Origin: an uncultured Dokdonia sp.
GTDB taxonomy: Bacteria; Bacteroidota; Bacteroidia; Flavobacteriales; Flavobacteriaceae
DNA length: 64,000 nucleotides
Assembly: GCF_947492815.1 (NCBI RefSeq)
Contig: NZ_CANLOB010000014.1
Span: forward strand, 325-64,324
Direction of reading: 5' to 3'
The translations under genes were made by a program, and so were the position numbers. Positions 78 to 64,000 of this stretch are shown here, piece by piece. Every line of letters starts with the position of its first letter. Position 1 is the first letter of the stretch. Below the pieces are notes generated by a model that ran no database searches, had not been told where the DNA came from, and saw nothing but the letters and a program-made list of their open reading frames with translations.

Positions 78-3000
78 ATGACAGAATTCAACTTTAAGAA
101 GTGGAATAAAATAGTCGGATGGAGTGTTTTTGCCATCGCATTACTTGTATACTCTCTTACTGTGGAGCCTACAGCAAGTTTCTGGGATGCTGGAGAATAC
201 ATCTCAACATCTTCCAAATTAGAGATAGGTCACCCTCCTGGAGCGCCTCTTTACCAAATATTAGGAGCTTTTGTTTCTATTTTTGCACCAGATAGCACCT
301 ATATCGCACTCGCTGTAAATTATCTTTCATGCTTGACAAGTGCCTTCACCATTCTTTTTATGTTTTGGTCACTTACCTTATTAATTAGAAAATTATTACA
401 CATCAACACAGAAGTAATGACTACTTCCAAGCAATATGCAGTACTTGGAAGCGCTGCTATTGGGTCACTTGCTTTTAGTTTTACAGATAGTTTCTGGTTT
501 AATGCTGTCGAAGCAGAGGTATATGCGCCTGCCGCTTTTATCCTCTCTTTATTATTTTACCTAGGCTTACTTTGGGAACGTGACATGCACAAACCACGTG
601 GTAACAGATGGCTTATTCTTATTGCATTTATTGTAGGACAGTCATTTGGAATTCACTTCATGGGACTTCTTACTATTCCAGCAATAGGATTATTATATTA
701 TTTTAAAAACACAAAAGAGGTTACTGCAAAAAATTTCATTATTGCACTTGTCGTTGTAGTGGCTGTATTACTATTTATCTTTAAATTCTTATTACCATAT
801 ACACTTGCCATATTTGGGCATCTAGAAGTATTTTTTGTCAATACACTCAGGCTACCATTTAATAGCGGTACTATTATCGCAGCCTTATTATTAGCGGGAC
901 TTTTTTATTATGGGTTTACGCTTTCGCGAAAGCATAACAAGCCTGCTTTAAACACGGTATTGCTATGTATATTATTTATATTCATAGGATTCTCAAGTTG
1001 GCTTATGTTACCTATTAGAGCCAATGCTGGAACGACTATTAATGAAAACAACCCTAATAATGCGCGTGAATTATTAGCGTATTATAATCGTGAGCAATAT
1101 CCAGAAACACATCTTTTTTATGGACCTCAGTTTACTTCTGATTACTCAGGACTAGACCCTGACAATCCCTATGTAGACGAAAAAAAGAAATATGAAAAGG
1201 ATGAAAAATTAGGAAAATATGTGGTTGTAAATGAATGGCGTAATGCAGGCCAGAATCTTGACGATGCACATAAAGCATTTTTACCTCGTATGTGGAGCCC
1301 AGAACACAATGCAAATTACATGCAGTACACTGGACCTCTTGATTTTAGCATTAAAGCAGAATATGCTGGCGAACCTGAATTACAAGATATTGTCATGCAA
1401 TTTAAGTTAGATTATGCTCAAGGGAAAGTAGACTATGAAGGATATAATGCATTCCTAAAAAGTGAAATTGGACAATACTACCTAGATGTAGAAAAGCCTT
1501 CTTTTGGAGATAACATTTCATATATGTTCAGTTATCAGTTTGGATATATGTATTGGCGTTATTTTATGTGGAACTTTACCGGACGTCAAAACGATATTCA
1601 AGGACAAGGAGATGATTTTAACGGAAACTGGATTAGTGGAATCAATTGGGTGGATAGTTTATTTATAGGTCCGCAGGATAATCTACCTTCGGATGTAACA
1701 AAAAACAAAGCACGTAATACCTATTATTTTTTACCATTGCTTTTAGGATTATTAGGGATTCTATTTCACGTAAGTAAAGACTGGAAGAATTTTGTAGTAC
1801 TTCTTGTATTTTTCTTATTTACAGGTTTAGCGCTTAAAGTATATCTAAACGAGCGGCCTTTTGAACCTAGAGAGCGTGATTATGCACTTGTAGGATCTTT
1901 TTATGTCTTTGCCATGTGGATTGGCTTTGGCGCATATGCATTGTTTGACATCTTAAAAGATGTTATCAAGCCAAAAATAGCAGTTCCCGTTGCTATGGTT
2001 ATTTGTTTATTTGCAGCACCTGTATTATTAGCTACAGAAAATTGGGATGATCACGATCGTTCTGGACGTAAAACAGCCCTTGCTATGGCTCGGAAATATC
2101 TAGATTCTGTAGATGAGAATGCGATTTTATTTACCATAGGTGATAATGATACATTTGCACTTTGGTACGTGCAAGAGATTGAAGGCTATCGTACAGATGT
2201 GCGTGTTGTAAATACCAGTCTTATTAATACAGATTGGTATATGGATCAAATGAAACGTAAAGCATTTAAAAGTGATCCTGTACCTAGCACTCTTACGCAT
2301 GAAAAATACCGCTACGGTACCCGTGATGCTATTTTTTATGCTCCTATTAAAAAAGATGGAGATGATATTACTGCTGTTGACAAATGGCTGAATTGGATTG
2401 CACTTGATGATCCTAGAACACAAGAAGAACTCAGAAATGGAAAGCTTGTCAATACTTTTCCAAGTAAAAAAATAAGAATCCCTGTAGATAAAAATACAGT
2501 ACTTAGTAACAATATTGTTCCTGAAAGAGATGCAGAAGAGATTGTACCATATATTGATATCGAATTAAAGAGCGATATTCTATATAAGAATAGACTTCTT
2601 ATGATGGATATTCTTGCTACTAATAACTGGGAGCGCCCTATTTACTTTACAGGAGGTAGTTTTGGAGATGATGATTACTTATGGATGAAAGATTACCTAC
2701 AACTTGACGGAGTTTGCTTTAAACTAGTTCCAATTTATACACCTGTAGACAAACGTAATCCATATGACATGGGACGTATAGATTCTGAGAAGTCTTATGA
2801 AATCATCAAAAACTGGTACTGGGGTAATAGTGGTGATCCAGATATTTACCACGATCGTGAGACACGTTCTAATGCAATTACCTATCGTGGTAATATAGCA
2901 CGTGTTGTTGAACAACTTATTATAGAAAATGATCCTGAAAAAGCTAAAGAACTCATGGACCTTGCTATGGAGAAAATGCCTGTAGATATCTTTGAATTCT

Positions 3001-3389
3001 ATACATTGTTAGAACCTTATATTAGTGGGTATTATCAAGTTGGAGAAACACAAAAAGCAAGGGATCTTTGGGAACAACTTGCTACAAAATATCAAGAGCA
3101 GCTCACCTATTTTAGTGGTCTTTCTGAAAGCAGACAATATGATTATGCTCAAGAAATTATTACAAACATAGAAAAGTACAGAAGCCTTATAGACTTAATA
3201 GTAGCCAATCAAGACGAGGAACTTGTAGAAGAGAAGGCGAAAGAGTTTAATGATTATTTACGTGCATTTTCTTTCTTTTATGACGATGAAGAACCAGAAA
3301 ACATTGAAAGTATAGAAGATATACTTGGCGATGAATCTATTCCTATACCAGCAGACACTACTGAAAGCGATACGATTCTAAAACAATAA
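78..3389 (+). CDS. DUF2723-family multi-pass membrane protein (GT-C fold, TMEM260-like putative glycosyltransferase)
   Basis: 1103 aa ORF; many TM helices; N-terminal WDAGEY and HPPG motifs typical of DUF2723; C-terminal soluble domain with TIGDNDTF. Confidence 0.8.
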   Translation: MTEFNFKKWNKIVGWSVFAIALLVYSLTVEPTASFWDAGEYISTSSKLEIGHPPGAPLYQILGAFVSIFAPDSTYIALAVNYLSCLTSAFTILFMFWSLTLLIRKLLHINTEVMTTSKQYAVLGSAAIGSLAFSFTDSFWFNAVEAEVYAPAAFILSLLFYLGLLWERDMHKPRGNRWLILIAFIVGQSFGIHFMGLLTIPAIGLLYYFKNTKEVTAKNFIIALVVVVAVLLFIFKFLLPYTLAIFGHLEVFFVNTLRLPFNSGTIIAALLLAGLFYYGFTLSRKHNKPALNTVLLCILFIFIGFSSWLMLPIRANAGTTINENNPNNARELLAYYNREQYPETHLFYGPQFTSDYSGLDPDNPYVDEKKKYEKDEKLGKYVVVNEWRNAGQNLDDAHKAFLPRMWSPEHNANYMQYTGPLDFSIKAEYAGEPELQDIVMQFKLDYAQGKVDYEGYNAFLKSEIGQYYLDVEKPSFGDNISYMFSYQFGYMYWRYFMWNFTGRQNDIQGQGDDFNGNWISGINWVDSLFIGPQDNLPSDVTKNKARNTYYFLPLLLGLLGILFHVSKDWKNFVVLLVFFLFTGLALKVYLNERPFEPRERDYALVGSFYVFAMWIGFGAYALFDILKDVIKPKIAVPVAMVICLFAAPVLLATENWDDHDRSGRKTALAMARKYLDSVDENAILFTIGDNDTFALWYVQEIEGYRTDVRVVNTSLINTDWYMDQMKRKAFKSDPVPSTLTHEKYRYGTRDAIFYAPIKKDGDDITAVDKWLNWIALDDPRTQEELRNGKLVNTFPSKKIRIPVDKNTVLSNNIVPERDAEEIVPYIDIELKSDILYKNRLLMMDILATNNWERPIYFTGGSFGDDDYLWMKDYLQLDGVCFKLVPIYTPVDKRNPYDMGRIDSEKSYEIIKNWYWGNSGDPDIYHDRETRSNAITYRGNIARVVEQLIIENDPEKAKELMDLAMEKMPVDIFEFYTLLEPYISGYYQVGETQKARDLWEQLATKYQEQLTYFSGLSESRQYDYAQEIITNIEKYRSLIDLIVANQDEELVEEKAKEFNDYLRAFSFFYDDEEPENIESIEDILGDESIPIPADTTESDTILKQ

Positions 3390-3390
3390 T

Positions 3391-4056
3391 ATGGGGTTAT
3401 TTATCCCACTTCCTATACGGGTACCTTCGTTTATAAAATGGATGCACCCGTCTTGGTATATATGGGATAAACCTTCTAAAGAAAAAACAATATACCTAAC
3501 ATTTGATGATGGTCCTATTCCAGAAGTAACAACATGGGTCTTAAACCTTCTTAAGCAAAAGGATATAAAAGCTACTTTCTTTTGTATTGGAGATAATGTA
3601 CAAAAACACCCAAAGGTTTTTAAACAAATCCTTGACGATGGACATACCATTGGCAATCACACCCAACACCATCTAAAAGGATGGAAACACACTACAGAAA
3701 AATATGTTTATGATGTTGCATTAGCAGAAACTACGATAACTCACGCATTACACTTAGAAGAAAAGCAGTCGCCAAGCTTTCCTCTTTTTAGACCTCCTTA
3801 TGGTAAAATAAAAAGGAAACAAGCTAAACAACTTCGTAAAAAGGGCTATCAAATCATCATGTATAGAACTGTTGCTTATGATTGGGAAGCTTCCACAACA
3901 CCAGAGCAATGTTTACAGAACATTATAAAGCATACTAGAAGTGGTGACTTAGTTGTTTTTCACGACAGTGTAAAAGCATCAAAAAACATGAAGTATGCAC
4001 TTCCTAAAGTCATTGATTATTTTCTAGAAAACGGATATTGTTTTAAACCTATGTGA
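3391..4056 (+). CDS. Polysaccharide deacetylase (CE4/NodB family)
   Basis: TFDDGP, HTQHH, FRPPYG and VFHDS motifs; starts 1 bp after DUF2723 stop. Confidence 0.9.
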   Translation: MGLFIPLPIRVPSFIKWMHPSWYIWDKPSKEKTIYLTFDDGPIPEVTTWVLNLLKQKDIKATFFCIGDNVQKHPKVFKQILDDGHTIGNHTQHHLKGWKHTTEKYVYDVALAETTITHALHLEEKQSPSFPLFRPPYGKIKRKQAKQLRKKGYQIIMYRTVAYDWEASTTPEQCLQNIIKHTRSGDLVVFHDSVKASKNMKYALPKVIDYFLENGYCFKPM

Positions 4057-5754: not shown

Positions 5755-5819
5755 TACGCTTTATCGCTTTGCTCTCCCTATGGTCGTGAATCTCACAAGA
5801 TCGATTTCGCGAAAGCGTA
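5755..5819. repeat. Miniature repeat element, family A copy 1 (ends TACGCTTT...AAAGCGTA)
   Basis: 65 bp; aligns by eye with 8686-8770 and with the reverse complement of 44429-44680. Confidence 0.75.
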
Positions 5820-8685: not shown

Positions 8686-8770
8686 TACGCTTTAACGTTT
8701 CACTCTTCCTAAGGTTGTGAATCTGCCTAACGACAGGCAGGTCTCGTAGGCTCAATTTCGCGAAAGCGCA
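8686..8770. repeat. Family A element copy 2 with internal CTGCC...GGCAGG insert
   Basis: Same ends and core as 5755-5819, plus about 20 bp TCTGCCTAACGACAGGCAGG between GTGAA and TCTC. Confidence 0.7.
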
Positions 8771-11385: not shown

Positions 11386-12345
11386 ATGCTTCGTATCACT
11401 AATGTTTCTTATGCCATTTCAGATCGATTCTCTTTACAGAATCTAAATCTTCAGATAGAAGAAGGAACTCATGTATCTATTATTGGGGAAAGTGGCTGCG
11501 GAAAGACGACTTTACTTAAATTAATTTATGGTCTTTATGATACCGATACTGGCACTATTTTTTGGAAGGATACTCAGATTACAGGCCCTAAAGACAACCT
11601 AGTACCGGGAATGCCTTTTATCAAGTATTTATCACAGGATTTTGATTTAATGCCTTTCATTTCGGTGGAAGAAAACATACAAAAATTCCTTTCCCGTTTA
11701 TATCCCGAAGAAAGTGCACAACGCACACAGGAGTTATTGGAGGTGGTGGAGATGTCCGCTTTCGCGAAAGCGCATGTAAAAACACTTTCAGGAGGACAGA
11801 AACAACGCGTAGCACTCGCACAAGCACTCGCAAAGGAGCCAAAAATCCTATTATTAGACGAACCTTTTTCTCATATTGATAATTTTAGAAAAAATAGGTT
11901 GAGAAGAAAACTCTTTTCATATCTCAAAAAACGACACATTACCTGTATTGTTGCCACGCATGATAGCACAGATATTTTATCTTACATGGATCAAACAATT
12001 GTTATTAGAGAAGGAGAAGTTATTGCAAATGCGACTACAAAAGAGTTATATAAAAATCCTAAAACACATTATATCGCTTCGCTTTTTGGGGAAGTAAATG
12101 AACTTCCCACTCATTGGTTTGATCCATCAGCAACAGATCTTTCTAAGACATCTCTTATATACCCTCATCAACTTATGGAAGCTAATTCTGGACTAGAGGT
12201 TATTGTCCAACAATGTTATTTTAAAGGAGGATACTACTTAATAGAGAGTATACATAAAGACACCACGATCTTTTTTGAATCTTCAAAACCACATACCACA
12301 AATGATATGATACAACTTACCTTAAAGACTATCTTTATGAACTAA
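11386..12345 (+). CDS. ABC transporter ATP-binding protein (FbpC/PotA-like), orphan
   Basis: Walker A GESGCGKTT, LSGGQ signature, LLLDEP Walker B; no permease adjacent. Confidence 0.85.
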   Translation: MLRITNVSYAISDRFSLQNLNLQIEEGTHVSIIGESGCGKTTLLKLIYGLYDTDTGTIFWKDTQITGPKDNLVPGMPFIKYLSQDFDLMPFISVEENIQKFLSRLYPEESAQRTQELLEVVEMSAFAKAHVKTLSGGQKQRVALAQALAKEPKILLLDEPFSHIDNFRKNRLRRKLFSYLKKRHITCIVATHDSTDILSYMDQTIVIREGEVIANATTKELYKNPKTHYIASLFGEVNELPTHWFDPSATDLSKTSLIYPHQLMEANSGLEVIVQQCYFKGGYYLIESIHKDTTIFFESSKPHTTNDMIQLTLKTIFMN

Positions 12346-13221: not shown

Positions 13222-16035
13222 ATGAGAAAAATCTTAGTTTTTATATGTGTGATATGCTGTACTACTTTATTTTCTCAGACAGGAACTGTATCTGGTATAC
13301 TAGAAGAAGAAAATGGTCCACTTCCCGGTGTTACTATTCTTGTAAAAGGAACTCAAAACGGTACAGTGACCAATTTTGATGGCATCTACTCCATAGAATG
13401 TAGTGTAGGAGATATTCTTGTAATCAGTTATATAGGTTATAAAACTAGAGAAATCTTAGTCACTGAAAATATGTTCAGTGACGTATATGAAGAAGCCATA
13501 CTTCTTGTAAAATCTAAGCCTGTTCGTCTTATGCGACATGAAGATTATAAAGAGAATGTACGCTCCTTACCCAAGAAACTCATATTCAACCCAAAAGACC
13601 AAGACCCCATAAAGAAAAAACACTATGGATATGGCAAAGACCTTTATCGCATTGCTCAATTTAAAACTACTGATAAAGAGGTAAAAATATACCAGCAAAG
13701 ACCTCGGTTTTACAGCTATGAAATTGAATATATAGGAGGATCAGCACAACGATTTATTCAAGATAAGAATCTACCAAAGCTTCAACGTATTTTTGCACAA
13801 GGATCTAATGGTATTGACTGGGAAGGTCCAGAGACTGGCACTGTATTTTCATTTGGACCGCGCTTGTCTGAATTAGGTTTTGACAATAGCATTTATGATT
13901 ATGACACGAATGGTCGTCTCATCCCTTTAGGAGACGCAAACAATAACGCTATTCCTTACACAAACACCTTATTCCAGAATAGTCATAGAGATGAGCATTT
14001 TATCAGATTCTCTATAGATAACGAAAACTTCCGCTCTCTTAGTGGAAACTTTAAATATGCGACTATTAAAGACGTATTTGGAAGAGAGAATACTCAAAAT
14101 ATTCTTGCAGGAGCAAATTACTCAAGAAATGGTCAGCAATGGAATTTAGATTCTAGTATAAAATTCGGATCAACTGTTGATAATCAACCCAACATAAATG
14201 GTTTTCAGAACCTCTTACTATTCCAAAATTACATCACTCCATCTAGTTTTGATACCACACAAGGAATTGCATTAGCAGATGGAACACAACGCAGTTTTGC
14301 CCCAAACATATACAACAATCCACTTTGGTTATTAGATACGCACAGAAACAAATCCAGTACTTCAAGTTTATCTACAGCTGTTGCTATCAAAAGACCATTT
14401 ACAGGCGATTTACAACTTACATTAGGAGGTTCATTTACATACAATAACCACAAACAGCGTTTTGGTCTCCCTAATGCTACTGCTGGTTTTCTTGACGGAT
14501 ATGCTTCTCAAAAAACGATACACAACACAAAAGTAGAAGGCTTTGCAAAGTTTACTACAAATTTTATAATCTCAGAGATAGACATTATGAGTTTATCACG
14601 TTTTTCTATATCAAATGAGCAACTAGATTATGATTTTAATGAAGTTGTAGGGTTAAATACGCTTTCGCGAAAGCGTACTCCGCAACGCACTAATTATGAA
14701 CTTTTAAACAGTATTACTTTTGGCATTCCTATTTTTGATTATCAAGATCTTGATCTCACTTTAGGGAATACGAGTTATATCTCTACACTTCAAGAAGATG
14801 CATTATGGCAACCAAGCGTGAAGCTATTTGCCAATTTAAAACACGTATTAGATGAACTTTATATTCTTAATTTCATAAACTATTGGGGAGTCTCCACAGG
14901 ATATTCATTCTCTAATGCAAATAGCCCTTTACTCTATGGGAATACAAGTCATAACAGTTTAAACTTCTTACCTGAAAACACACTTACATACACTGCAAAT
15001 AATGATTTATTTACGGAAGGCTCTTTACAACTAGAAGATATTACTCGATTTGAAATAGGGAATGATTTCCGTTTTTTTAGAAATCATTTTTCACTGGACA
15101 CTAACTTTTTTGCAGAAACGCGAAGCAATGTTGTATTTCCTGTACTAGATGCTAATTATACACTTGCTAATGTAGCTACCGTAGAAAATAAAGGCATAGA
15201 AATTCATTTAGGTATTGATCACATACGTAAAGAAAAATTGCATTGGCACACTGGAATTACTTTTTCAAAAAACAGAACCAATGTCACAAAAATAAACTCA
15301 AATACTACCCGAGTGCCTATTAGTGGTTTTTCTAACATTCGACAGAACCTTATTGTGGGACAGCCTGCAGGGATTATTGTTGGGACTGCTTTTGAAAGAA
15401 ATACTAACAATCAAGTTGTTATTGACGATGCTGGATATCCAATAGTACAAACTGACTTACAAATAATTGGAGATCCCACACCCGATTTTCAAGTTGGACT
15501 TAGCAACCATTTTAAAATAGGAAAGCAATTACAAATAGCTTTTACAATAGACTGGAGACAAGGTGGAGACATTTGGAATGGCACACAGCAAGTACTTAAT
15601 TACTTTGGGAGATCTCAAGAGTCTGCACAACTAAGAAATACAGAAGGGTTTGTTTTTGAAGGCGTAAATACTTCCGGAACTATCAACACAACACCAGTTA
15701 ATTTTCTAAACCCAAATCAAGATGTACTTTCAAATAGGTGGACACGCTATGGTTTTTCTGGAGTAGGAGAATCTGGAATTGTAGATGGCACTTATATCAA
15801 TCTAAATGACATAACGATTTCTTATGATTTTATAAAACCCAAAAAGGGTTATGAATACAAGACATTCAAATCTATAAGACTTATCCTATATGGACATAAT
15901 CTACTTACCTATTCCAAGTATGATGGTGCTTCTCCATACACTTCTCTATTTGATGGACTCAGCGCACAAGCTCTCAACTTCTTCAATACTCCTTTGGTCT
16001 CTGAAATAGGTTTTAAAGTCAATTTAAAAATATAA
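13222..16035 (+). CDS. SusC/RagA-type outer-membrane beta-barrel apparently lacking the plug domain
   Basis: Signal peptide; carboxypeptidase-regulatory-like N-domain (GPLPGVTILVKGTQNGTVTNFDG); barrel motifs LPKLQRIFAQG, SFGP, GDPTPD, DWRQGGDIWNGT and C-terminal FFNTP...GFKVNLKI; no VVTG, IRG, VDG or GVIxITTK plug motifs. Confidence 0.8.
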   Translation: MRKILVFICVICCTTLFSQTGTVSGILEEENGPLPGVTILVKGTQNGTVTNFDGIYSIECSVGDILVISYIGYKTREILVTENMFSDVYEEAILLVKSKPVRLMRHEDYKENVRSLPKKLIFNPKDQDPIKKKHYGYGKDLYRIAQFKTTDKEVKIYQQRPRFYSYEIEYIGGSAQRFIQDKNLPKLQRIFAQGSNGIDWEGPETGTVFSFGPRLSELGFDNSIYDYDTNGRLIPLGDANNNAIPYTNTLFQNSHRDEHFIRFSIDNENFRSLSGNFKYATIKDVFGRENTQNILAGANYSRNGQQWNLDSSIKFGSTVDNQPNINGFQNLLLFQNYITPSSFDTTQGIALADGTQRSFAPNIYNNPLWLLDTHRNKSSTSSLSTAVAIKRPFTGDLQLTLGGSFTYNNHKQRFGLPNATAGFLDGYASQKTIHNTKVEGFAKFTTNFIISEIDIMSLSRFSISNEQLDYDFNEVVGLNTLSRKRTPQRTNYELLNSITFGIPIFDYQDLDLTLGNTSYISTLQEDALWQPSVKLFANLKHVLDELYILNFINYWGVSTGYSFSNANSPLLYGNTSHNSLNFLPENTLTYTANNDLFTEGSLQLEDITRFEIGNDFRFFRNHFSLDTNFFAETRSNVVFPVLDANYTLANVATVENKGIEIHLGIDHIRKEKLHWHTGITFSKNRTNVTKINSNTTRVPISGFSNIRQNLIVGQPAGIIVGTAFERNTNNQVVIDDAGYPIVQTDLQIIGDPTPDFQVGLSNHFKIGKQLQIAFTIDWRQGGDIWNGTQQVLNYFGRSQESAQLRNTEGFVFEGVNTSGTINTTPVNFLNPNQDVLSNRWTRYGFSGVGESGIVDGTYINLNDITISYDFIKPKKGYEYKTFKSIRLILYGHNLLTYSKYDGASPYTSLFDGLSAQALNFFNTPLVSEIGFKVNLKI

Positions 16036-22202: not shown

Positions 22203-22311
22203 ATCTGTTTAGTAAATAGCATCTATTCTAAATACGCTTTCGCGAAAGCGTACCCAACCTTATTCCCATTTATTGAATAGTAATTGTAATACCTAAGAAG
22301 CATCACACATT

Positions 22312-40057: not shown

Positions 40058-40070
40058 TACCAATATCACC

Positions 40071-40835
40071 ATGGCTATTTACAGATATGACAGTACTTTT
40101 GAAGGGTTTCTCTCTTGTGTGTTTGAGTATTATGAGCAAAAACCTGCATCGTTATCTATTGTTCCTAATCATCATAATGCACTCTCTATTTTTGACACGA
40201 AAGAAACTATCATTACAGATCCTATAAAGGCAGAACGAGTTTGGAAAGGCCTCAAACAAACTGGAGGGGCCAAAACCACAACAGCTATCTACCGAGCTTT
40301 TTTAAGTGAGAAAGAAGGCATTGAAAATACACTACTCTCTTATATTATAAAACTTTTTAAACATCAAACATCTATAGAAGACTATACTGATTTTGACGTA
40401 GTTCAGATACGAAAAACAGTTAAAATGGTAGGGCGAGAAAAACATCGTATGGATGCTTTTGTACGCTTTCGCGAAACAAAGGACGGTATCTATTTTGCCA
40501 CAGTAGCACCAGATTTTAATGTCTTACCCTTAATCTCAACTCATTTTAAAAAGCGATATGCAGATCAAAAATGGTTGATTTACGATCTCAACCGAAAGTA
40601 CGGTATCTATTATGACCTCTACACAGTAGAAACTATTGAACTAGCCCTCGCATCTGATATTAATACACCATCAAAAGCCACAATTTACTTTACAGAAGAA
40701 GAACTACAATACGAAGCATTATGGCAAAACTATTTTAAGAGTACCAATATTGCATCAAGAAAAAACATGAGATTACACCTACAGCATGTCCCAAAAAGAT
40801 ACTGGAAGTATTTAAGCGAGAAAAGACCTTCTTAA
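40071..40835 (+). CDS. TIGR03915/DUF4130-family putative DNA metabolism protein
   Basis: YDSTFEGFL, REKHRMDAFVRF, PDFNVLP, PKRYWKYL; usual partner of the upstream radical SAM; start at ATG 40071. Confidence 0.88.
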   Translation: MAIYRYDSTFEGFLSCVFEYYEQKPASLSIVPNHHNALSIFDTKETIITDPIKAERVWKGLKQTGGAKTTTAIYRAFLSEKEGIENTLLSYIIKLFKHQTSIEDYTDFDVVQIRKTVKMVGREKHRMDAFVRFRETKDGIYFATVAPDFNVLPLISTHFKKRYADQKWLIYDLNRKYGIYYDLYTVETIELALASDINTPSKATIYFTEEELQYEALWQNYFKSTNIASRKNMRLHLQHVPKRYWKYLSEKRPS

Positions 40836-40850: not shown

Positions 40851-41756
40851 TTAAGTAATAAATCGTAACCATTCATTAGGTTTGATAAGGACGATACAAA
40901 AAACACCTGCTACAATAATAAACTTTAAAATATTATGTAATAATAAATAATGAAGTTTTGCTTGTGATTTCCATAAGGCTCCTAAAAAAAGAAGTAATGC
41001 AATCACACTTGCATAAAAGTAAAAATCCATATACCCTACTTCAAAGTGATTGATTAAAAAGTAAACGGGTATCACTGTAAAACCTGCAAGTGCCGTTAGC
41101 ATCCATTTGGATGTTTTTTCTCCAAACACAATAGGAATTGTTCGATACCCTTGTGTCAAATCTCCCTTTAAATTTTCTAAATCTTTTGTGAGTTCGCGCA
41201 TTGCAATCACCAAAAACAAAAAACTAGCATGTACAAAAATGACAGTATCGAGGTTTTTGTAATACAAAAAGGTAGCAAAGAAAGGAGTAATGGCAAGTAT
41301 AGCTGCCGTAAGGTTCCCTATAAAAGGCCTCTTCTTTAACTTATGAGAATACAACCAGATTCCAAAAATATAAATCGCAAAAAATACTACTGCTCTAAAT
41401 GACACATAGCTCGCTGCAATGACAGCTAGAAAATTGAGTACAAAATAAAAAGAGAGTTTGGTATTCTGACTTACCAATCGATCTAACATTGTTTTACGTG
41501 GTCTATTAATGAAATCTTTTTCTGAATCGTAAAAATTATTAATAATATAGCCTCCAGCAATGGTTGCCGCAGAAGCAATAACAAGCATAAAAAGATTTAA
41601 ATCAAAAACAACTTCTCGTAATGTTCTACCTGAGGATAGTATAAATATAGACGCAAGATATTGGGCAAGTACAATCACCAAAATATTATAACCTCTCACG
41701 ACAGAAAACAAACTAAACATCTTAAGAAGTGTTCGTTTATTTTTTCGCGAAAGCAT
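40851..41756 (-). CDS. UbiA-family prenyltransferase (DGGGP synthase-like)
   Basis: INNFYDSEKDFINRP and RELTKDLENLKGD Asp-rich motifs; about 9 TM helices. Confidence 0.8.
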   Translation of the reverse strand: MLSRKNKRTLLKMFSLFSVVRGYNILVIVLAQYLASIFILSSGRTLREVVFDLNLFMLVIASAATIAGGYIINNFYDSEKDFINRPRKTMLDRLVSQNTKLSFYFVLNFLAVIAASYVSFRAVVFFAIYIFGIWLYSHKLKKRPFIGNLTAAILAITPFFATFLYYKNLDTVIFVHASFLFLVIAMRELTKDLENLKGDLTQGYRTIPIVFGEKTSKWMLTALAGFTVIPVYFLINHFEVGYMDFYFYASVIALLLFLGALWKSQAKLHYLLLHNILKFIIVAGVFCIVLIKPNEWLRFIT

Positions 41757-42750: not shown

Positions 42751-43827
42751 TTACAATTTTTTTGCTCCATTTCCCACGCAATCATTAATATAGTGGCTGT
42801 TTTGGCAAAATTTTGACAATTCGTTTTCTATAAAAAGGTGTATTTCTTCAGTTTCTTTTTGAGGATATAACACATGTACATTTGCTCCTGCATCTAGTGT
42901 AAAACATACTTTTGAGTCTGTTTTTTCTCTATATGCCCAGATGCGATTTATGATTTCTAGTGTATTAGGTTTCATTAATATAAAGTAAGGATGGCTCGTC
43001 ATCATCATGGCATGTAATGTGAGCGCTTCACTTTCTACAATAGCAATAAAGGCATCCAAATCTCCAGATTGCAATACTGTTTTTAACTGAACTAAATTGT
43101 CGTATGCCTGATTAAATCTCGCTTTCGCGAAAGCATGCCCATACATCAACCCATGTCCTACAGTGCTACTTACTTGTTTCTCTCCTTTATCTACCAATAA
43201 GATCGTGTCTTGATAATCTTGAAAATTAGCATGTACTTCATAAGGGTATTCTGTACCGTATAGATCACTACTATTTGCAATATCTTGATGCGCTCCCCAA
43301 ACGATGAGTGGCCCCTCTAAACTTCGACAAGCACTTCCTGAACCTAACCGAGATAAAAAGGAAGCTTTTTGCATAAAATAGCTTTCTGTCATTTCAGGAG
43401 AAAGTTGGCGTTCTATATCCATAATACATAGGGACAACGCACTCATTCCAGATGCAGAAGAGGCAATTCCCGAACTATGTGGAAACGAATTGGATGTTTC
43501 AATCTTAAAACTGTAACTCGTTATAAACGGGACGTATTTTTCTATGCGTTTAAAAAAGCTAGCAATCTTTGGCTCAAAACCTTCTTCTTTAGTTCCATCT
43601 AAATATACTTCAAATTCAAATCCAGCCGTTTCTTTGGGAGTATATGCCAAGGTTGTGATGGTATGACAATTACTTAACGTAAAACTTATACTAGCGTTTT
43701 GAGGTAGTTGTTCTCCATGTTTTCCCCAGTATTTAACTAAAGCGATATTACTAGGAGATTGCCAACACACCGAACCTGCAGACACTACAGGAATATTTGA
43801 ATTTAAAACAAAAGAATCTTCAGACAT
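42751..43827 (-). CDS. mvaD: Diphosphomevalonate decarboxylase
   Basis: SPSNIALVKYWGK, PHSSGIASSASG, GSGSACRS, DAGANVH. Confidence 0.92.
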   Translation of the reverse strand: MSEDSFVLNSNIPVVSAGSVCWQSPSNIALVKYWGKHGEQLPQNASISFTLSNCHTITTLAYTPKETAGFEFEVYLDGTKEEGFEPKIASFFKRIEKYVPFITSYSFKIETSNSFPHSSGIASSASGMSALSLCIMDIERQLSPEMTESYFMQKASFLSRLGSGSACRSLEGPLIVWGAHQDIANSSDLYGTEYPYEVHANFQDYQDTILLVDKGEKQVSSTVGHGLMYGHAFAKARFNQAYDNLVQLKTVLQSGDLDAFIAIVESEALTLHAMMMTSHPYFILMKPNTLEIINRIWAYREKTDSKVCFTLDAGANVHVLYPQKETEEIHLFIENELSKFCQNSHYINDCVGNGAKKL

Positions 43828-44428: not shown

Positions 44429-44680
44429 TACGCTTTCGCGAAAGCGAACTTGTGAGACCAGCAGGCAGGCAGGTTCATGACTAATAAGGAGAGTGGCATT
44501 AAACCCGCATTATTCAATAAAACTTCATGATGAGGGTTGAAACAGCAATAAAATATGGCATTTTCTGAGTTTTAGCATAGCATCGCTATGGTTAAACTTA
44601 AAAACGTATTGCAGTGATATATTTTACAGCAGTTTCAAGACGGAATAGATTTTCTATTGCATAATGCGGGTTAAAGTGTA
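44429..44680 (-). repeat. Family A element copy 3 (inverted), interrupted by a MITE
   Basis: Reverse complement matches copies 1 and 2 once 44503-44671 and one TAA are removed. Confidence 0.7.
44503..44671. mobile_element. Non-autonomous MITE with ACCC-terminated inverted repeats
   Basis: ACCCGCATTATTCAATA / TATTGCATAATGCGGGT (16/17 match), flanked by TAA direct repeats; no ORF. Confidence 0.7.
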
Positions 44681-54463: not shown

Positions 54464-57400
54464 ATGCAAGTTAAATTCACATACCAAACCGTTATCGGAG
54501 CACTCCTCGCTCTATGCATCATAGGATGTACTTCGACTACCAAAGAAAAAGAAAACGAAAAGCAAGAGACTGCAACAGAAGGAAATCCTTTATTTACACT
54601 TCTATCTAAAGAAGAAACAGGTATTGATTTTGTAAACAACATAAAAAACCAAAAAGATTTTAATATTTTCAAATACCGTAACTTCTATAATGGAGGTGGG
54701 GTTTCTATTGGAGATATTAATAATGATGGACTTCCTGATATTTTTCTCACAGCCAATATGGAGAAAAATAAACTTTACTTAAACAAAGGTGATTTTACTT
54801 TTGAAGATATTTCAGAAAAAGCAGGTATTGAAGGTAACAAAGCATGGTCTACAGGAGTAACTATGGCCGATGTAAATGCAGACGGATTATTAGACATCTA
54901 TGTGAGTAATGCTGGAAATTTAGAGGCAGATAACCATGATAATGATTTATACATTAACAACGGAGATCTGACCTTTACAGAAAAAGCAAAAGAATACAAC
55001 TTAGCGACTTCGGGGTTTTCTACGCATGCCTCCTTTTTTGACTATGATAAAGATGGAGATTTAGATGTATATATCTTAAATAACAGTAATGTTCCTGTAA
55101 GTAGTTTAGGAAACAAAGGACAGCGTGACAAACGTGCTCAAGACTGGGAAAATGTAGATAGCCAGTTTAGAGGGGTTGGTGATCTACTCATGCGTAATGA
55201 CAATGGGGTTTTTACAGACGTAAGCAAAGAAGCTGGTATTTATGGCTCCCTTATTGGATTTGGATTAGGCGTGATGGTTACAGACATTAACCACGATTTA
55301 TATCCAGACATCTACATCTCAAATGACTTCTTTGAGCGTGATTATTTATACATTAACAATCAAGACGGTACTTTTACTGAAGAAATAAAAAAATGGACTT
55401 CTCACCTATCACTCTCTGCGATGGGCGTTGATATTTCAGATATTAATAATGACGGACTGCAAGATATTTTTATTACAGACATGCTTCCTGATGGAGAAGA
55501 ACGTGTGAAATCTGTCATGGAATTTGACGGGTATAATGTGTATAAGAGAAAACAACGTAACGATTTCTACCAGCAGTTTATTCAAAATACCTTACAAGTA
55601 AACAATGGTAATGGCACCTTCTCTGAAGTAGCGTATCATAGTGGTGTAGAAGCCACCGATTGGAGTTGGTCTGGATTGGTCTTTGATATGGATAATGATG
55701 GGTATCGCGATATCTATGTAACTAATGGTATTAATCATGATCTTACAGACTTAGATTTTGTAGACTTTTTTGCTAACGAGATTATTCAAAGTAAAGCCAC
55801 AGGAGAAACTAGAGTATTAGACACTATTATTAATAAAATGCCTGTAAAGCCACTTTCTAATTATGCCTACCAAAATCAAAAAGACATTACTTTTAAAAAC
55901 AAGGCCAAAGATTGGGGACTTGAAATTTTAAGTATGTCTAATGGTGCTGCCTATGGTGACTTAGATAATGACGGAGATCTAGATCTTGTCGTAAATAATG
56001 TAAACATGCCATCGTTTGTTTATAGAAATAATACCGACAAAGAAAGAAATCACAACTATATTAAATTAAAATTTAAAGGCGCCGAGAAAAATCCTTTTGC
56101 AATAGGCACTACCGTACGCTTATATCATGGAGGTCAAACGTATATCCAGGAACTTGTTCCTTCTAGAGGATTCCAATCTTCTATGGAACATACCATGACC
56201 ATAGGATTAGGAGCTTCTCAAAAGATAGATTCGTTACGTGTGATTTGGCCTAATGAAAAAACACAGCGTTTTGAAAATCTTACAGTCAACCAAACGCTTC
56301 AACTGCAAATTACAGAAGCAACTGACACCTATAAAGTACCTGCGTCTACAAAAGCAAAAACACTTTTTAATGAAATTTCAAATACGTCATTAGATACTCA
56401 TAAAGAAAATGAGTACAGTGACTTTGATTACGAAGGTCTCATTGCAAAAAAACTATCTCAAGAAGGTCCATCATTAGCTATCGGAGATATAAATGGTGAT
56501 GGTCATGAAGATGTATTTATAGGCGGAGCTAAAAAACAAGCGGGAACACTTTACCTACATAAAGGAAATGGAAAACTAACCAAAGCACCCACGAATGCTG
56601 CCTTTAAAAAAGATGCTAATTATGAAGATTCGGCAGCAGCATTTTTTGATGCAGATAATGACGGCGATTTAGATTTGATGGTAGGCTCAGGTGGTAATGA
56701 AGTGACTACGAAGACAGATTATAGTCTTCGTTTATATCTAAATGATGGTAAGGGCGCTTTCGCGAAAGCGGAAAACACCATCCCTTCTGCATATCAGAAT
56801 ATGTCTGTGATTGCACCCTATGATTTTGATCAAGATGGCGACATGGATGTATTTGTAGGCTCTCGAAGTGTGATTGCAGTATATGGAATTGATCCGGAAC
56901 ACCTTTTCCTTGAAAATAGAGGAAATGGAGAATTCTCAAATGCAACAGAGCGCATTGCATATCCTCTTAAAAATGCAGGAATGATTACCGATGCACTTTG
57001 GGCAGATATGGATCAGGATGGAAAAGAAGATCTTGTGGTTACTTCAGAATGGGGAACTACCAAAATATTTAAAAATAATGGAAGACGTCTTACCGCTATG
57101 AAAAGCTCTTTAGATGATGTACACGGATGGTGGAATACCTTAGAGGCATCAGATCTTGATAACGATGGAGACCTTGACCTAGTATTAGGAAATGAAGGAA
57201 CCAATATTCATTACAAACCTGAAGAAGGGGCTCCTATGAAAATGTACATTAATGACTTTGATAATAATGGTACCATAGAGCAAATCACCACCTTTCATAA
57301 AGATGGAAAGGATTATCCATTACATCAAAAGAAAGAACTTACGGGACAATTAGTGTCTCTTAAAAAACAGAATATCAAGGCATCTGATTATGCAAAACGG

Positions 57401-57835: not shown

Positions 57836-60800
57836 AAATATCATATTTCTTAGTCTACTCTTTATGCTTTTTGGCTGTAAAGAGAAAGATACTTTATTTA
57901 AAAATCCATCAGCAGAAGATACAGGGCTTACGTTTGTAAATACCTTGACAGAAAGTGACGATTTCAATATTATAGATTACCTCTATTTTTACAATGGTGG
58001 CGGACTTGCCATAGGTGATATAAATGGAGACACGCTTCCTGATATTTTTATTTCAGGTAATCAAGTAAAAAACAAACTTTACCTCAACAAAGGGAATCTT
58101 CAGTTTGAAGACATTAGTGATAAAGCAGGGATAACAGGTAATAGCACGTGGAATACAGGTGCGGTAATGGGCGATGTAAATGGCGATGGTTTACTAGACA
58201 TTTATGTATGTGCCGTAGTAGGCATTAATGGTTTTGATGGGTATAACGAATTATACATCAATAATGGAGATGCAACATTTACAGAAAGTGCAGCAAAGTA
58301 CGGTTTAGATCTAGATACTTACAGCTCTAATGCCGCTTTTTTAGATTATGACTTAGATGGCGATTTAGATATTTATATTCTGAATCATGCAGTACATACC
58401 CAAGAATCGTATGGAAAAGCCTCTTTACGCTTTAAGCGAAATTATGAGACGGGAGATCGATTGATGCGTAATGACGGAGGCAAATTTACAGATGTAAGTG
58501 AAGAAGCCGGCATTTTAGGAGGCATCAACAGCTACGGATTAGGAATTGCCATTGCCGATTTTAATCAAGATGGATGGCCAGATATTTATGTAGGGAATGA
58601 TTTTCACGAAGATGATTATTACTATTTAAATACAGGAGAAGGCAGCTTTCGCGAAAGCTTAAAAGACTACTTTGGACACACCTCACGTTTTTCTATGGGA
58701 AATGATGTGGCTGATATTAATGCCGATGGTTGGCCTGATATGATCTCACTAGATATGCTGCCTGAAGATGAAAAAGTATTAAAATCATCTGAAGGGGATG
58801 ATAACATTCAAACGCAGAAATTACGTATTGACCGTTTTGGATATCACTATCAGTTTACACGTAATATGCTATATGTAAATCAAAAAGGATATGATTATCA
58901 AGAAACTGCACTTTTAAGTGGTATTGCTGCTACCGACTGGAGTTGGAGTGCTTTATTTGCCGACTTTGATCAAGATAGTACGCAAGATCTTTTTATCTCA
59001 AACGGGATTCCGAAACGTCCAAATGATCTGGATTATGTTCGTTTTATCTCTAGTAAGCAAATTCAAAATAAAATAAGCAATACCAAACTCATTGATCAGA
59101 AAGCATTAGACTTAATGCCTAAGGGGAATACGCATAATTATATCTTTAAAGGAAAAGGACAGCTCGCATTTGAAGACTTATCTGGCACATGGACTCAAAA
59201 AGACACCTTGGTTTCTGGAGCCACTGCCCTAGCCGATCTAGATAATGATGGTGATTTAGATATCGTCACTAATAATATTAACACGACTCCACAAGTATAT
59301 CAAAATACCACCGATGCTTCGGCAAATTATCTAAAGATTCGTTTTGAGTATAAAAAAGGAAATACTCTGGGAATAGGCACCAAAGTATTTGCCTATCATA
59401 AAGGGCAATTACAGTATAAGGAATTATATACCGTACGGGGTTTCCAAGCATCTTCCGAACCAATACTGCACTTTGGAGTTGGTAATGCACCTAGTATCGA
59501 TTCGCTAAAAGTGATCTGGCCAGATCGTACGTCACAAATACTTACTAATGTGACGACAAATCAAACACTTACTATTTCGCCGAAAGGCAATACACCTTTT
59601 AATTATAATACACTACAACCTAAGAGCCAATCTCTTTTCAAAAAAGTAGTCGATAATTTAGGCATTGATTTTACCCATACAGAAGATCGATACATTGATT
59701 TTAACAGACAAAAACTTATTCCATACCAAGTATCAGATCGTGGTCCAGCAGTCGCTATCGGTGATATCAATGGAGATCAAAGAGATGATATTTATTTTGG
59801 GAGTTCTAAGTTTCAAGAATCCAAAATTTATCTGGCTGATAGCATTGGGTTTACAGCAGCTTCATTTCCTATTATCACCAAAGAGACTGTTACAGAAGAT
59901 GTAGTGGCAACCCTTCAGGATTTTGATCAGGATGGTCGTGCAGATCTTCTTATAGGAACTGGTGGCACCGACTTTGATAATAAGGCAAAACCACTCAAAG
60001 ATCTTTATTACACAGCCAAAGACACGACGTTTGTACAACAACAACTTCCAGAAAGCTTTCAGAACGCTTCTGTACTCGCTGTACACGATTATGATAATGA
60101 TGGTGATCTAGATGTATTTGTAGGTAACCAGGCTGTTACAAATGATTTTGGGCGCCCATCTGAATCGCTATTACTTCGCAATGATAAAGGTACTTTCAGT
60201 ATAGACGATACGACCTCTTTTAATGATATAGGAATGTTAACAGATGCTGTTTGGAGTGATTTTAATGCCGACGGAACAAAAGACCTTATCCTTATTGGAG
60301 AATGGATGGCACCTCAGTTTTATGCAAACACAAATGGCAGTTTACAAAAAGTACTTGTAACTGATGCATCTATGCATGGGTTATGGCAAGCTATAGAACC
60401 CTTTGATATGGATGCCGATGGCGACATAGATTACATCTTAGGAAATTGGGGAGAAAACAGTAAGTTTTCTGCTTCTCCAGAAGCACCTATGTATGCTTAT
60501 TTAGATGACTTTGATTCCAATGGTCAATCAGAAACGATTATTGCCACTCAAAAAAATGGAGCCTATTACCCATTATTAGGATTAAATGAATTAGGTAGTC
60601 AGATGACCAACCTCTTTAAAAAGTACACAAGTTATAAGGATTTTGGAGGGCAGACAGTAGACGCTATTTTTGGTAAGAAAGCTTTATCTCAAAGCACTCA
60701 ATTACGCGTAGAAACCTTACAATCTGGATACTTAAAAAATGAAAATGGACGTTTTAGGTTTGTGCCTTTCGGCGAAAGCTTACAAATAGCGCCTATCATG

Positions 60801-63341: not shown

Positions 63342-63346
63342 AACAT

Positions 63347-63916
63347 ATGTCCAAGCTATTCCTAGATCAAAACTACCAAGGCATTGATTATACTAGCCAA
63401 GGGTTTTCTATAGGAGAGTATGACAATTGTACATTTACAAACTGCTTATTTCCAGAGCTACATATTTCTAATACCACCTTCTTAGAATGCACATTTATAG
63501 ATTGTAATTTTACCAATACCAAGTTTGGAGGAACAACACTTAATGACGTCTTTTTTAAAGGCTGTAAAATGATAGGGATAGATTTAAGTGTATGTAATGA
63601 TTTTATGCTTTCCATAAAAGCCGAAGACTCTGTACTCGATCTGGCAAATTGTTATCAACTCAATCTTTCAAAAACTTCTTTTAAAGAGTGCTCTTTAAAA
63701 GAAGTAGATTTTACAGAAAGCAACCTATCTGAAGTAATATTTGCAAATTGCAACCTTAAAGATGCTATTTTTGATCATACCAATCTTCAAAAAACAGATT
63801 TTAAATCGGCATTAAATTATACCATAGACCTAGACCAGAATACGGTAAAAGGTGCTCAGTTTTCTAAAGAAAATATACAGGGACTACTCACTAAATACGG
63901 TATAAAAATCTCCTAA
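63347..63916 (+). CDS. Pentapeptide-repeat protein
   Basis: Serial [AC][DNST]F/L five-residue repeats (NCTFT, ECTFI, DCNFT, GCKMI, NCNLK); start moved to ATG at 63347. Confidence 0.92.
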   Translation: MSKLFLDQNYQGIDYTSQGFSIGEYDNCTFTNCLFPELHISNTTFLECTFIDCNFTNTKFGGTTLNDVFFKGCKMIGIDLSVCNDFMLSIKAEDSVLDLANCYQLNLSKTSFKECSLKEVDFTESNLSEVIFANCNLKDAIFDHTNLQKTDFKSALNYTIDLDQNTVKGAQFSKENIQGLLTKYGIKIS

Positions 63917-64000
63917 TATGCTTTTATACGCTTTCGCGAAAGCGTATACCTGATACACACATCATAAAACACTTGTGAAAACAAATGGTTTAAATTTAGT

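Follow-up and report, generated by a model that had tools for sequence, protein, structure and literature searches.

A perfect palindrome with the core TTTCGCGAAA is iterated throughout the Dokdonia genome, and by resemblance it belongs beside the HIP1-type iterated palindromes and the DNA-uptake sequences. The word is most likely a recognition site built in place rather than a mobile element. Our analysis favors, with a probability of roughly 0.4, a reading in which it is a self-DNA tag used in DNA uptake, homologous recombination, or both.

Abundance and coding imprint of the word

The window, the whole 64-kb stretch of DNA that was analyzed, contains 19 TTTCGCGAAA cores, every one at the position given in the preliminary description, versus 0.03 expected from dinucleotide shuffles (shuffle maximum, 1). 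The exact 14-mer GCTTTCGCGAAAGC accounts for 13 of the 19, with 0 expected. Enrichment confined to the window had been named as a possible refutation; the Dokdonia genome G000 (5.24 Mb, 33.9% GC) carries 1,134 cores and 860 14-mers. The core count is 230–490 times the Markov expectation of 2–5, and the core and its palindromic extensions are the top-ranking 10-, 12-, 14-, and 16-mers genome-wide. One-off variants of the core show just an approximately 2.6-fold excess, and two-off variants are at background. The word was not found in the literature searched.

Thirteen window cores lie within long ORFs and are read as LSRK (six), FRES/FRET (four), or AFAKA (three), as described previously. LSRK is encoded by a 14-bp perfect palindrome (920..933) in a TMEM260-like glycosyltransferase gene (78-3389, plus strand), where the core is kept in 5/5 syntenic relatives; by the 20-bp palindrome TACGCTTTCGCGAAAGCGTA (14658..14677) in a CarboxypepD_reg-domain protein gene (13222-16035, plus); by the core alone (29369..29378) in a GT87/ALG6-like gene (28585-29973, plus); and by 14-bp palindromes in a PMT-family glycosyltransferase gene (33795..33808 in 32467-34149, minus) and a CN-hydrolase gene (38344..38357 in 37676-38641, minus). 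The 26-bp perfect palindrome claimed at 23425..23450 is present, reads FRES near the 3' end of ORF 23404-23862 (minus), and has its core kept in five relatives. FRES is also spelled by 16-bp palindromes in a GT2 glycosyltransferase gene (26760..26775 in 26394-27098, plus) and an FG-GAP/UnbV_ASPIC repeat protein gene (58644..58659 in 57786-61073, plus), and FRET by a core in a DUF4130 gene (40467..40476 in 39984-40835, plus). AFAKA is encoded by 16-bp palindromes in an ABC-transporter ATPase gene (11757..11772 in 11386-12345, plus) and another FG-GAP/UnbV_ASPIC gene (56755..56770 in 54464-57835, plus), and by a 14-bp palindrome in a mevalonate-diphosphate decarboxylase gene (43121..43134 in 42751-43827, minus). 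The core at 41743..41752 occupies the far 5' end of a UbiA-family ORF (40851-41756, minus), at about codon 4, and the true start may lie downstream of it. No core occurs in susC (46279-49428) or susD (49446-51065), as assigned by Pfam, in agreement with the earlier observation; since the mean spacing is 4.5 kb, a 4.8-kb gap is ordinary and this absence is unremarkable.

Across G000, AFAK occurs 333 times versus 22 expected, and its motif-codon spelling 292 times versus 1.5. LSRK occurs 148 times (motif-codon spelling, 104 versus 0.04 expected) and FRES 104 times (95 versus 0.5). Codon or dipeptide usage, the other refutation that had been envisaged, is rejected as the source of the frequency, since these peptides use the motif codons far above expectation.

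Although 51% of copies lie inside ORFs, non-coding DNA carries the word at approximately 6 times the coding density (0.75 versus 0.13 per kb; 559/1,134 sites). The preliminary description had set it apart from "mostly intergenic" REP elements; that contrast has to be corrected with respect to location, and the word differs from REP in its origin and in the missing RAYT link. The intergenic window copies comprise a 20-bp palindrome between convergent genes (22233..22252), a 12-bp palindrome (37259..37270), a 24-bp palindrome approximately 10 nt past the stop of ORF 63305-63916 (63925..63948), and three copies associated with a mini-element. These are a core at the 3' end of an approximately 65-nt element (5805..5814 in 5755-5819), a core at the 3' end of a longer variant (8756..8765 in 8686-8770), and a 16-bp palindrome joined to an inverted variant (44431..44446; element at about 44429-44500).

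Origin by point substitution

To follow the sites between species, 1,339 G000 ortholog pairs were compared genome-wide with G009, the closed genome of another Dokdonia species, at approximately 72% protein identity. More than 90% of in-gene sites lie in gap-free ortholog alignments and half are letter-perfect: 139 of the 274 sites persist in G009, 118 have an equal-length counterpart without the word, and 17 fall in gaps. For intergenic sites, the probability of a site in G009 given a site in G000 is 0.63 versus 0.13, corresponding to an odds ratio of 11. The CN-hydrolase site, aligned across 29 Dokdonia genomes, shows zero length change; its motif letters are invariant while adjacent synonymous sites vary, and motif-less genomes read ALSKH, VLAQN, and similar. 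At 11757..11772, equal-length orthologs in G023 and G002 lack the motif and are 4 and 8 substitutions apart, respectively. A comparison of the 64-kb syntenic region in five genomes also supports substitution. The question of substitution or insertion, raised previously, is thus answered by all three comparisons in favor of point substitution.

This origin bears on a REP/RAYT- or MITE-type mobile repeat, which would account for an abundant short palindrome that is denser between genes, and approximately 52 copies do reside in the mini-element (approximately 70 nt). REP/BIME elements likewise comprise hundreds of short, spacer-enriched palindromes that are possibly protein-binding sites (gyrase, IHF), but their hairpins are imperfect, a Y1 transposase spreads them, and they occur in spacers alone. 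The Dokdonia word arises in place, half of its copies are in genes, in-gene sites mostly align without gaps, and compensatory hairpin changes were not found. The Y1 transposase/RAYT (PF01797) is missing in the motif-rich G009, G012, G018, G041, G042, and G297, motif-less genera do have it, and the mini-element explains just approximately 4% of G000 cores. Mobility is refuted as a general explanation by the gap-free orthologs, the RAYT mismatch, the absence of covariation, and this small share, and we consider it almost certainly wrong.

Symmetric architecture with skewed arms

The unit of function would comprise three layers spanning about 50–56 bp: the invariant 10-bp core, a strongly preferred extension to the 20-bp palindrome given above, and an arm of approximately 20 nt on either flank, C-poor and G/T-rich on whichever strand runs 5' to 3' toward the center. 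The cores are flanked by mirror-image C-poor/G-poor arms of this length, whose skew ends abruptly at a distance (d) of approximately 26. On either strand, it is precisely the stretch with its 3' end at the dyad that is skewed. GC skew over d11–25 is +0.48 where the site is conserved, +0.42 where it is species-specific, +0.14 in the motif-less ortholog, and 0.00 at random CDS positions; the arms come and go together with the core. Covariation between the arms was sought at d6 to d15 and none was found, complementarity throughout this range being what independent arms would give. The half-sites thus vary independently of each other; a protein with two-fold symmetry that reads the double helix fits this pattern better than a hairpin does.

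A hairpin in RNA or DNA, acting as a transcription terminator, RNA-processing signal, or cruciform, is therefore highly improbable, as what is conserved is the sequence and not the pairing. The 20-mer could form an 8-bp stem, all six intergenic window copies lie downstream of some gene's 3' end, and sites in tandem spacers are closer to the upstream stop than to the next start (medians, 63 versus 126 nt). However, divergent, promoter-only spacers are nearly as dense as other spacers (0.66 versus 0.79–0.95 per kb), half of the copies are in genes, and the even spacing described below disregards gene orientation.

The arms would suit a nick or break started at the site, in which a putative dimeric nuclease-like protein acts at the 4-bp CGCG dyad center, as a selfish element or a recombination hotspot. 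Exposure of the 3'-ended strand over approximately 25 nt per side would yield the mirror-image skew, with its polarity, its limit, and its dependence on the core, and repair favoring the intact word would copy or preserve it as a bidirectional Chi-like or homing-like hotspot. The great excess of perfect cores over one-off variants agrees with this model. Conversely, no nuclease candidate was identified, the changes in coding arms (C down 8 points, G up 9) are more like base-pair orientation swaps than pure deamination, and site creation takes several independent substitutions, templated patches at new sites being absent from the G000–G009 ortholog comparison. We regard this model as unlikely, and it is decidedly unlikely that a strand-specific transaction starts at each palindrome through a putative clade-restricted dimeric enzyme cutting or nicking CGCG. 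If it did, the approximately 1,000 evenly spaced sites would act as programmed hotspots of bidirectional recombination or repair, and horizontal transfer of the enzyme would account for the patchy spread over Dokdonia, a sister genus, and one non-sister genus.

Even spacing along the chromosome

Sites in G000 are spaced far more evenly than the null (CV 0.736 versus 1.04 ± 0.03), and gaps shorter than 1 kb number 75 versus 242 ± 12 expected. The closed G009 genome gives a CV of 0.65, 31 versus 143 short gaps, and a dispersion index of 0.54–0.68. Even spacing holds genome-wide whatever the gene orientation. The distribution along the replichores, which the preliminary description had left for a check, is uniform in density from origin through terminus in G009. 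That description mentioned neither the even spacing, nor the mirror-image skewed arms that extend the site to approximately 50 bp, nor the independent half-sites.

Two 39-kb stretches of C2 in G000 contain no motif. A serine recombinase and T4SS coupling proteins are encoded within them, a secretin and a T2SSE ATPase directly upstream, and we regard them as ICE-like DNA that was recently acquired.

A structural or topological role would likewise produce even spacing and conservation; in it, a nucleoid-associated protein or type II topoisomerase would occupy a high-affinity site every 3.5–4.5 kb and manage supercoiling, looping, or compaction. Such a role has reportedly been proposed for E. coli REP/BIME as gyrase or IHF sites. 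The uniform density, the symmetric footprint with its independent half-sites, and the similar 14-mer counts (700–900) across genomes spanning 2.9 to 5.5 Mb are consistent with this role, and the CGCG center, judged from sequence, has the geometry of a 4-nt staggered cut. Nevertheless, universal enzymes such as gyrase leave the restriction to three genera unexplained, and absence from ICE-like islands is predicted by slow site acquisition and not by a structural role alone. No extra ParB/Noc-like paralog accompanies the word: motif-rich and motif-less genomes alike have one ParB_N gene, and the macrodomain bias of parS- or NBS-type sites is lacking. We hold this role to be possible, though doubtful.

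A putative self-DNA tag

In the preferred reading as a self-DNA tag, the reader would most likely be a homodimeric protein with two-fold symmetry that recognizes the word in double-stranded DNA. Ordinary point substitutions would make copies wherever the local sequence permits, genes included, even at the cost of amino-acid changes; the copies would then be held letter-perfect, and the maintaining process would favor one site every few kilobases along all native chromosomal DNA. Accumulation may proceed by molecular drive, through bias in uptake or recombination, or by selection, as for Pasteurellaceae USS and Neisseria DUS. HIP1 has reportedly been proposed of late as a tag accumulating in a similar way. 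The existence of a reader protein, its identity, and the DNA transaction using the tag are what we infer from these patterns.

Published genome patterns and models of uptake sequences feature even spacing together with scarcity in coding and in newly acquired DNA (PMC7811141), and the Dokdonia word, evenly spaced and scarcer in both, agrees with the uptake model. In addition, natural competence occurs among the Flavobacteriales, in species with a preference for their own DNA, and makes use of no recognized pilus genes (PMC7965970, PMC8459023), as in Riemerella (PMC8459023). Against the tag reading, the T2SSE ATPase is missing from most motif-rich genomes and ComEC is non-discriminating. Known uptake sequences are asymmetric 9–12-mers, unlike these 14–20-bp perfect palindromes. 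We know of no USS or DUS with mirror-image arm skew, which suits a site-centered, strand-specific process at least as well as an uptake tag.

Phylogenetic distribution and candidate determinants

Among approximately 480 Bacteroidota genera sampled, only Dokdonia and two others are word-rich, and one Dokdonia genome (G014) has just 70 copies of the 14-mer. The RpoB of G063 is 89% identical to that of Dokdonia, no closer than motif-less genera (85–91%); this hints at a transferable determinant, as the nick or break model would have it, although single-protein identity is a weak phylogeny.

Phylogenetic profiling, suggested previously, links neither C5, D12, and N4/N6 methyltransferases, RAYT, nor the pilus ATPase to the word, and ComEC is found in every genome tested; no reader protein emerged from the methyltransferase, RAYT, pilus ATPase, and ParB candidates. 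The T2SSE type IV pilus ATPase occurs in 13/34 Dokdonia genomes, and its G000 gene adjoins the ICE-like island. ComEC is intact in 36/36 motif-bearing genomes tested and in 40/40 overall; it gives uptake no positive support because it is equally intact in motif-less genera and G014.

Methylation-directed repair around TCGCGA had been put forward, by which an orphan methyltransferase would modify this 6-bp palindrome within the core and methyl-directed repair or strand discrimination would maintain the word. In G000, 1,134/1,356 TCGCGA occurrences fall within TTTCGCGAAA, and HIP1 is tied to DmtA and DmtC (PMC4390886). The panel covered C5, D12, and N4/N6 enzymes, and none of these classes tracks the word: the sole C5 enzyme of G000 is strain-specific and missing from its nearest relatives, the D12 class is missing in motif-rich G002, G006, G009, G012, G018, G063, and G297, closed genomes included, and N4/N6 (PF01555) is missing in G000 and most Dokdonia genomes. 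The proposal is thus unsupported, and we judge it very unlikely.

Comparison with known systems

The preliminary comparison with HIP1 and DUS/USS holds, as the word is frame-independent, substitution-born, ortholog-conserved, and genome-wide. HIP1 (GCGATCGC) and alternative iterated palindromes of cyanobacteria (PMC4390886, PMC5861425, PMC13756078) are likewise hundreds-fold over expectation, with copies in all reading frames and in spacers, substitution origin, interspecies conservation, quasi-regular spacing, and palindromic extensions. They differ in phylum and in an invariant part of 8 bp versus 10–14 bp (20-bp consensus). The Dokdonia word is approximately 10 times less dense, with rare one-off variants, skewed arms of approximately 20 nt, and no co-occurring orphan methyltransferase conserved among the classes surveyed.

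Pasteurellaceae USS and Neisseriaceae DUS (PMC2817400, PMC7811141) are also clade-specific words that imprint peptides on the proteome, are evenly spaced and under-represented in coding and newly acquired DNA, and have a weaker extended flanking consensus. They are asymmetric, taken up through type IV pili, and borne by proven competent hosts, whereas the Dokdonia word is a perfect palindrome in genomes most of which lack the T2SSE pilus ATPase.

Chi is a short asymmetric word that points along with replication, is read in single-stranded form, and stimulates RecBCD or AddAB, whereas the Dokdonia word has two independent half-sites and, being a perfect palindrome, no orientation. The two share a density of approximately one site per 4.5 kb of native DNA and a G/T-rich side 5' of the site on each strand.

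Abundance of the palindrome and its imprint on proteins

The window (contig C14, positions 325–64324) contains 19 exact copies of the 10 bp palindrome TTTCGCGAAA, hereafter the core or word, compared with 0.03 expected from dinucleotide-preserving shuffles, and 13 of the 19 are extended to the exact 14-mer GCTTTCGCGAAAGC. All 19 copies listed in a preliminary description, made from the sequence alone, were located. As described there, 13 cores reside within long ORFs, where they are read as LSRK (six), FRES/FRET (four), or AFAKA (three), and a perfect palindrome of 26 bp, the longest in the window, is present at 23425–23450. The susC/susD genes were likewise correctly described as devoid of copies, with no core across 46279–51065, although a gap of 4.8 kb is unremarkable. 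The core-bearing ORFs are ordinary genes, encoding glycosyltransferases, an ABC ATPase, a CN hydrolase, UbiA, a DUF4130 protein, mevalonate-diphosphate decarboxylase, and FG-GAP proteins. The DUF4130 gene, with its internal core, overlaps a radical-SAM/HHH gene (38729–40835 for the pair, forward strand); genes paired in this way usually receive the annotation of putative DNA modification/repair proteins. An unusual domain architecture is encoded at 16040–20677 (forward strand), where a 1,545-residue ORF combines alpha-2-macroglobulin domains (MG2, A2M, and TED) with the Plug domain of TonB-dependent receptors.

The enrichment is not confined to the window. The 5.24 Mb draft assembly of the source genome (33.9% GC) contains 1,134 cores and 860 14-mers, while Markov models of order 1 to 5 predict 2–5 cores. 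The word and its overlaps top the frequency lists of 10-, 12-, 14-, and 16-mers, and 1,134 of the 1,356 TCGCGA sites fall within a core. Single-mismatch variants of the core number 324 against about 122–168 expected, and double-mismatch variants occur at the background level. When the outer positions of the 14-mer are intact, hardly any single changes occur within the central 10 bp. The genome-wide consensus around the core is TACGCTTTCGCGAAAGCGTA.

This abundance is imprinted on the proteome. AFAK occurs 333 times (22 expected from residue frequencies), with 292 occurrences encoded by the motif codons (1.5 expected from codon usage). The corresponding values are 148 (21.7) and 104 (0.04) for LSRK, and 104 (11.4) and 95 (0.5) for FRES. 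The excess of motif codons indicates that the DNA word drives the peptides rather than the reverse, and codon or dipeptide usage, the explanation against which the preliminary description asked to be checked, is ruled out.

Creation and conservation of the copies

The CN-hydrolase gene was aligned for 29 Dokdonia genomes, and the length of the site is constant throughout. Motif-less genomes encode ALSKH, VLAQN, and similar peptides at the same codons; where the motif is present, its 16–18 letters are invariant while adjacent synonymous positions vary. The other in-gene sites of the 64 kb syntenic region behave similarly among five relatives (70–90% nucleotide identity). At the genome scale, the source genome was compared with 2.13 Mb of the closed genome of another Dokdonia species (G009) through 1,339 reciprocal best hits with a median protein identity of 72%. 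Among the 274 in-gene sites of the source genome, 139 are letter-perfect at the same codons in G009, 118 are absent from an ortholog segment of equal length, and 17 are gapped or unaligned. In the reciprocal comparison, the 236 sites of G009 are divided into 139, 75, and 22, respectively. Where the word is missing, the orthologous 10-mer differs at 1–9 positions, with a mode of 4–5. At this divergence, only a few percent of neutral 10-mers are expected to survive intact. In syntenic spacers, G009 carries a site in 63% of cases when the source genome has one and in 13% otherwise (odds ratio 11, p = 1e-15). The ortholog and spacer comparisons show that the word is written by point substitution, and that it is held by selection at the nucleotide level or by a persistent drive. 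An origin by insertion, the alternative posed in the preliminary description, is ruled out by the gap-free ortholog alignments, and we consider a REP/MITE model highly improbable.

Strand-skewed arms and independent half-sites

The element reaches past the 20 bp consensus. The 5′ arm, approximately 11–25 nt from the dyad centre, is poor in C (2–10%) and rich in G+T on each strand, and the composition of the 3′ arm is its mirror image. The GC skew amounts to +0.35 to +0.50 out to 25 nt and falls to zero by 26–30 nt; no kilobase-scale sawtooth of skew surrounds the sites, the skew stopping at about 26 nt. This profile is common to ORF-distant spacer sites and to in-gene sites of all three frames, and thus does not represent a codon artefact. 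The C depletion is also found in G009. Between 11 and 25 nt, the skew is +0.48 at conserved sites and +0.42 at species-specific sites, as compared with +0.14 at the same codons of a genome lacking the core and 0.00 at random coding positions. The arms are therefore part of the element. Their strand skew points to a strand-specific process, and a nick or break started at the site and followed by biased repair would best explain the mirror-image arms; overall, we regard this model as a rival of low probability that still merits consideration.

The complementarity of the arms between 6 and 15 nt from the centre equals that expected under independence at every distance. Since the half-sites vary independently, the palindrome probably reflects a two-fold symmetric reading of duplex DNA rather than selection for hairpin formation in DNA or RNA. 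Hairpin models, including a terminator, are contradicted by this lack of covariation and by the density of divergent spacers (0.66 sites per kb), which is nearly as high as that of the others (tandem, 0.79; convergent, 0.95), and they retain hardly any credibility.

A mini-element of about 70 nt with the consensus TATACGCTTTAaCGCTtcGCTCTCCCTtTGGTcGTGAATCTCaCaAGtTCGaTTTCGCGAAAGCGTATA is found in the window at 5755–5819, 8686–8770, and 44429–44500 (inverted). It resembles the palindrome interrupted after TACGCTTT by an insert of about 45 nt, is sometimes tandem, and in some variants contains an extra internal hairpin. The source genome has about 52 copies, corresponding to about 4% of its cores, versus 2 in 2.13 Mb of G009, so the mini-element has expanded in the lineage of the former. 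No Rfam family matched within the window, the mini-element included.

Even spacing and a possible self-DNA tag

A crude prediction of ORFs (86% coding) places 575 cores of the source genome within ORFs and 559 between them, which corresponds to a density about six times higher in non-coding DNA. In both genomes the cores are spaced much more evenly than expected by chance, as judged by a null preserving the coding/non-coding split for the source genome and by the Poisson expectation for G009. The coefficient of variation of the gaps is 0.736 in the source genome (1.04 ± 0.03 expected) and 0.65 in G009 (1 expected). Gaps under 1 kb number 75 (242 ± 12 expected) and 31 (143 expected), respectively, and long gaps are also depleted, with 30 over 12 kb in the source genome (76 ± 6 expected) and 14 over 10 kb in G009 (37 expected). 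Bins of 20–100 kb in G009 give an index of dispersion of 0.54–0.68, and the distribution along the replichores, raised as a check in the preliminary description, proved flat through both the GC-skew terminus (about 0.6 Mb) and the origin (about 1.95 Mb). A site for chromosome topology or nucleoid organization is a possible but less probable function; no extra ParB/Noc paralog was detected in the genome panel described below, ParB_N being single-copy in nearly all genomes, whether motif-rich or motif-less.

The source genome has only two large deserts, of 39 kb each, on contig C2. The motif-poor region (C2:196000–300600) contains repeated gene sets and encodes two T4SS coupling proteins along with a large serine recombinase, a content typical in our reading of ICE-like, recently acquired DNA, and the deserts look like two related islands of this kind in tandem. 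A cluster of secretin and T2SSE ATPase genes is located just upstream of the first desert. Elsewhere, some spacers hold three cores each at steps of about 220 bp or about 120–290 bp (C6:110194–110635, C15:7937–8407, and C38:35920–36170), which suggests that a longer unit is repeated in tandem.

We rank first, with a probability of about 0.4, the reading of the word as a self-DNA tag for uptake or recombination. The results fit a recognition word built in place and read by a symmetric dimer, with roughly one copy favoured per 3.5–4.5 kb of native DNA. Like uptake sequences, the word is evenly spaced, scarce in coding DNA and in newly acquired DNA, imprinted on the proteome, and restricted to a clade, and it has a weak extended flank; these features are published hallmarks of such sequences and are reproduced by a drive model (PMC7811141, PMC2817400). 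The ranking further draws on reported experimental links between HIP1 and transformation (bioRxiv 10.1101/2024.09.10.611283; PMC13756078), and on competent Flavobacteriales species that favour their own DNA without recognised pilus genes (PMC7965970, PMC8459023).

Iterated words, HIP1 and uptake sequences among them, rank with the strongest sequence signals of bacterial genomes that still lack an explanation. To our knowledge, HIP1 has gained no settled function in 30 years; the Dokdonia word is an independent system in a different phylum. Our literature search found no paper containing the word or linking Dokdonia to such a palindrome. New here are the genome-scale ortholog test, the even spacing repeated in a closed genome and uniform across its replichores, the half-site independence, the arm–core coupling, and the negative tests of the candidate partners.

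Candidate partners

Because the word is long and exact, one specific reader protein is expected. Candidates were compared across panels of 37–52 genomes comprising up to 34 Dokdonia, two genomes of other word-rich genera (G063 and G297), and motif-less genera. The C5 methyltransferase of the source genome is strain-specific and missing from its closest relatives. D12-class methyltransferases were not found in several motif-rich genomes (G002, G006, G009, G012, G018, G063, and G297), and N4/N6 methyltransferases (PF01555) were not found in the source genome or most Dokdonia. The methylation-linked mechanism proposed in the preliminary description is thus not borne out by the tested enzymes, which sets the phenomenon apart from methylation, and we assign it a minimal likelihood. 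The RAYT and competence genes that it named for profiling were also compared. The occurrence of the Y1 transposase/RAYT of the REP model is uncorrelated with the word. The T2SSE pilus ATPase is patchy, being present only in 13 of 34 Dokdonia and G063, and in the source genome it lies beside the ICE-like deserts. ComEC is intact in every genome tested, including those without the word, and its loss does not explain the low count of the Dokdonia genome G014. Accordingly, the reader was not found among the tested C5, D12, N4/N6, RAYT, T2SSE, ParB, and ComEC candidates, and none of the close site pairs or triplets examined in the source genome indicates an autoregulated reader gene.

Taxonomic distribution and probable transfer

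The closest named relatives of a window protein belong to Dokdonia, with D. pacifica DSM 25597 at 97% identity. In one survey, the 14-mer was present at 70–906 copies in all 24 genus members first sampled and absent from 16 other families of the order. Across 300 genera sampled in the family, high counts are confined to Dokdonia, G063 (753 copies of the 12-mer in 3.7 Mb), and G297 (446 copies in 3.2 Mb), and all others have at most 19 copies. A sample of the phylum comprising 401 genomes from 179 genera and 71 families shows richness solely in the source genome and G063, the others having at most four copies. No core is present in 499 kb of loci taken from other genera and orthologous to core-bearing ones. 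RpoB identity to the source genome is 96–97% within Dokdonia, 94% for G297, and 89% for G063, the last lying inside the range of motif-less genera (85–91%). G297 thus looks like a sister genus of Dokdonia and G063 does not, a single protein being weak evidence in this respect.

The number of 14-mers spans more than ten-fold in Dokdonia, with 70 in G014, 276 in G005, 415 in G011, and 700–906 in most others. These low-count lineages could expose the reader through gene loss. The lineage with ten-fold fewer 14-mers and the non-sister genus carrying the word provide natural contrasts, and Dokdonia strains are cultivable.

Four otherwise motif-less genera share a copper/metal-resistance island at 79–95% nucleotide identity (L147 in G150, L148–149 in G164, L150–151 in G325, and L152 in G187), which encodes an RND pump, an outer-membrane factor, a multicopper oxidase, and P-type ATPases. 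The island carries 2–6 copies of the word, including a pair within the OEP gene separated by 933 bp, and was likely transferred horizontally out of a motif-rich lineage. In practice, the word also serves as a marker of DNA with past residence in the clade, this island being an example. Judged by site spacing, a further genome (G262) has the same 933 bp-spaced pair.
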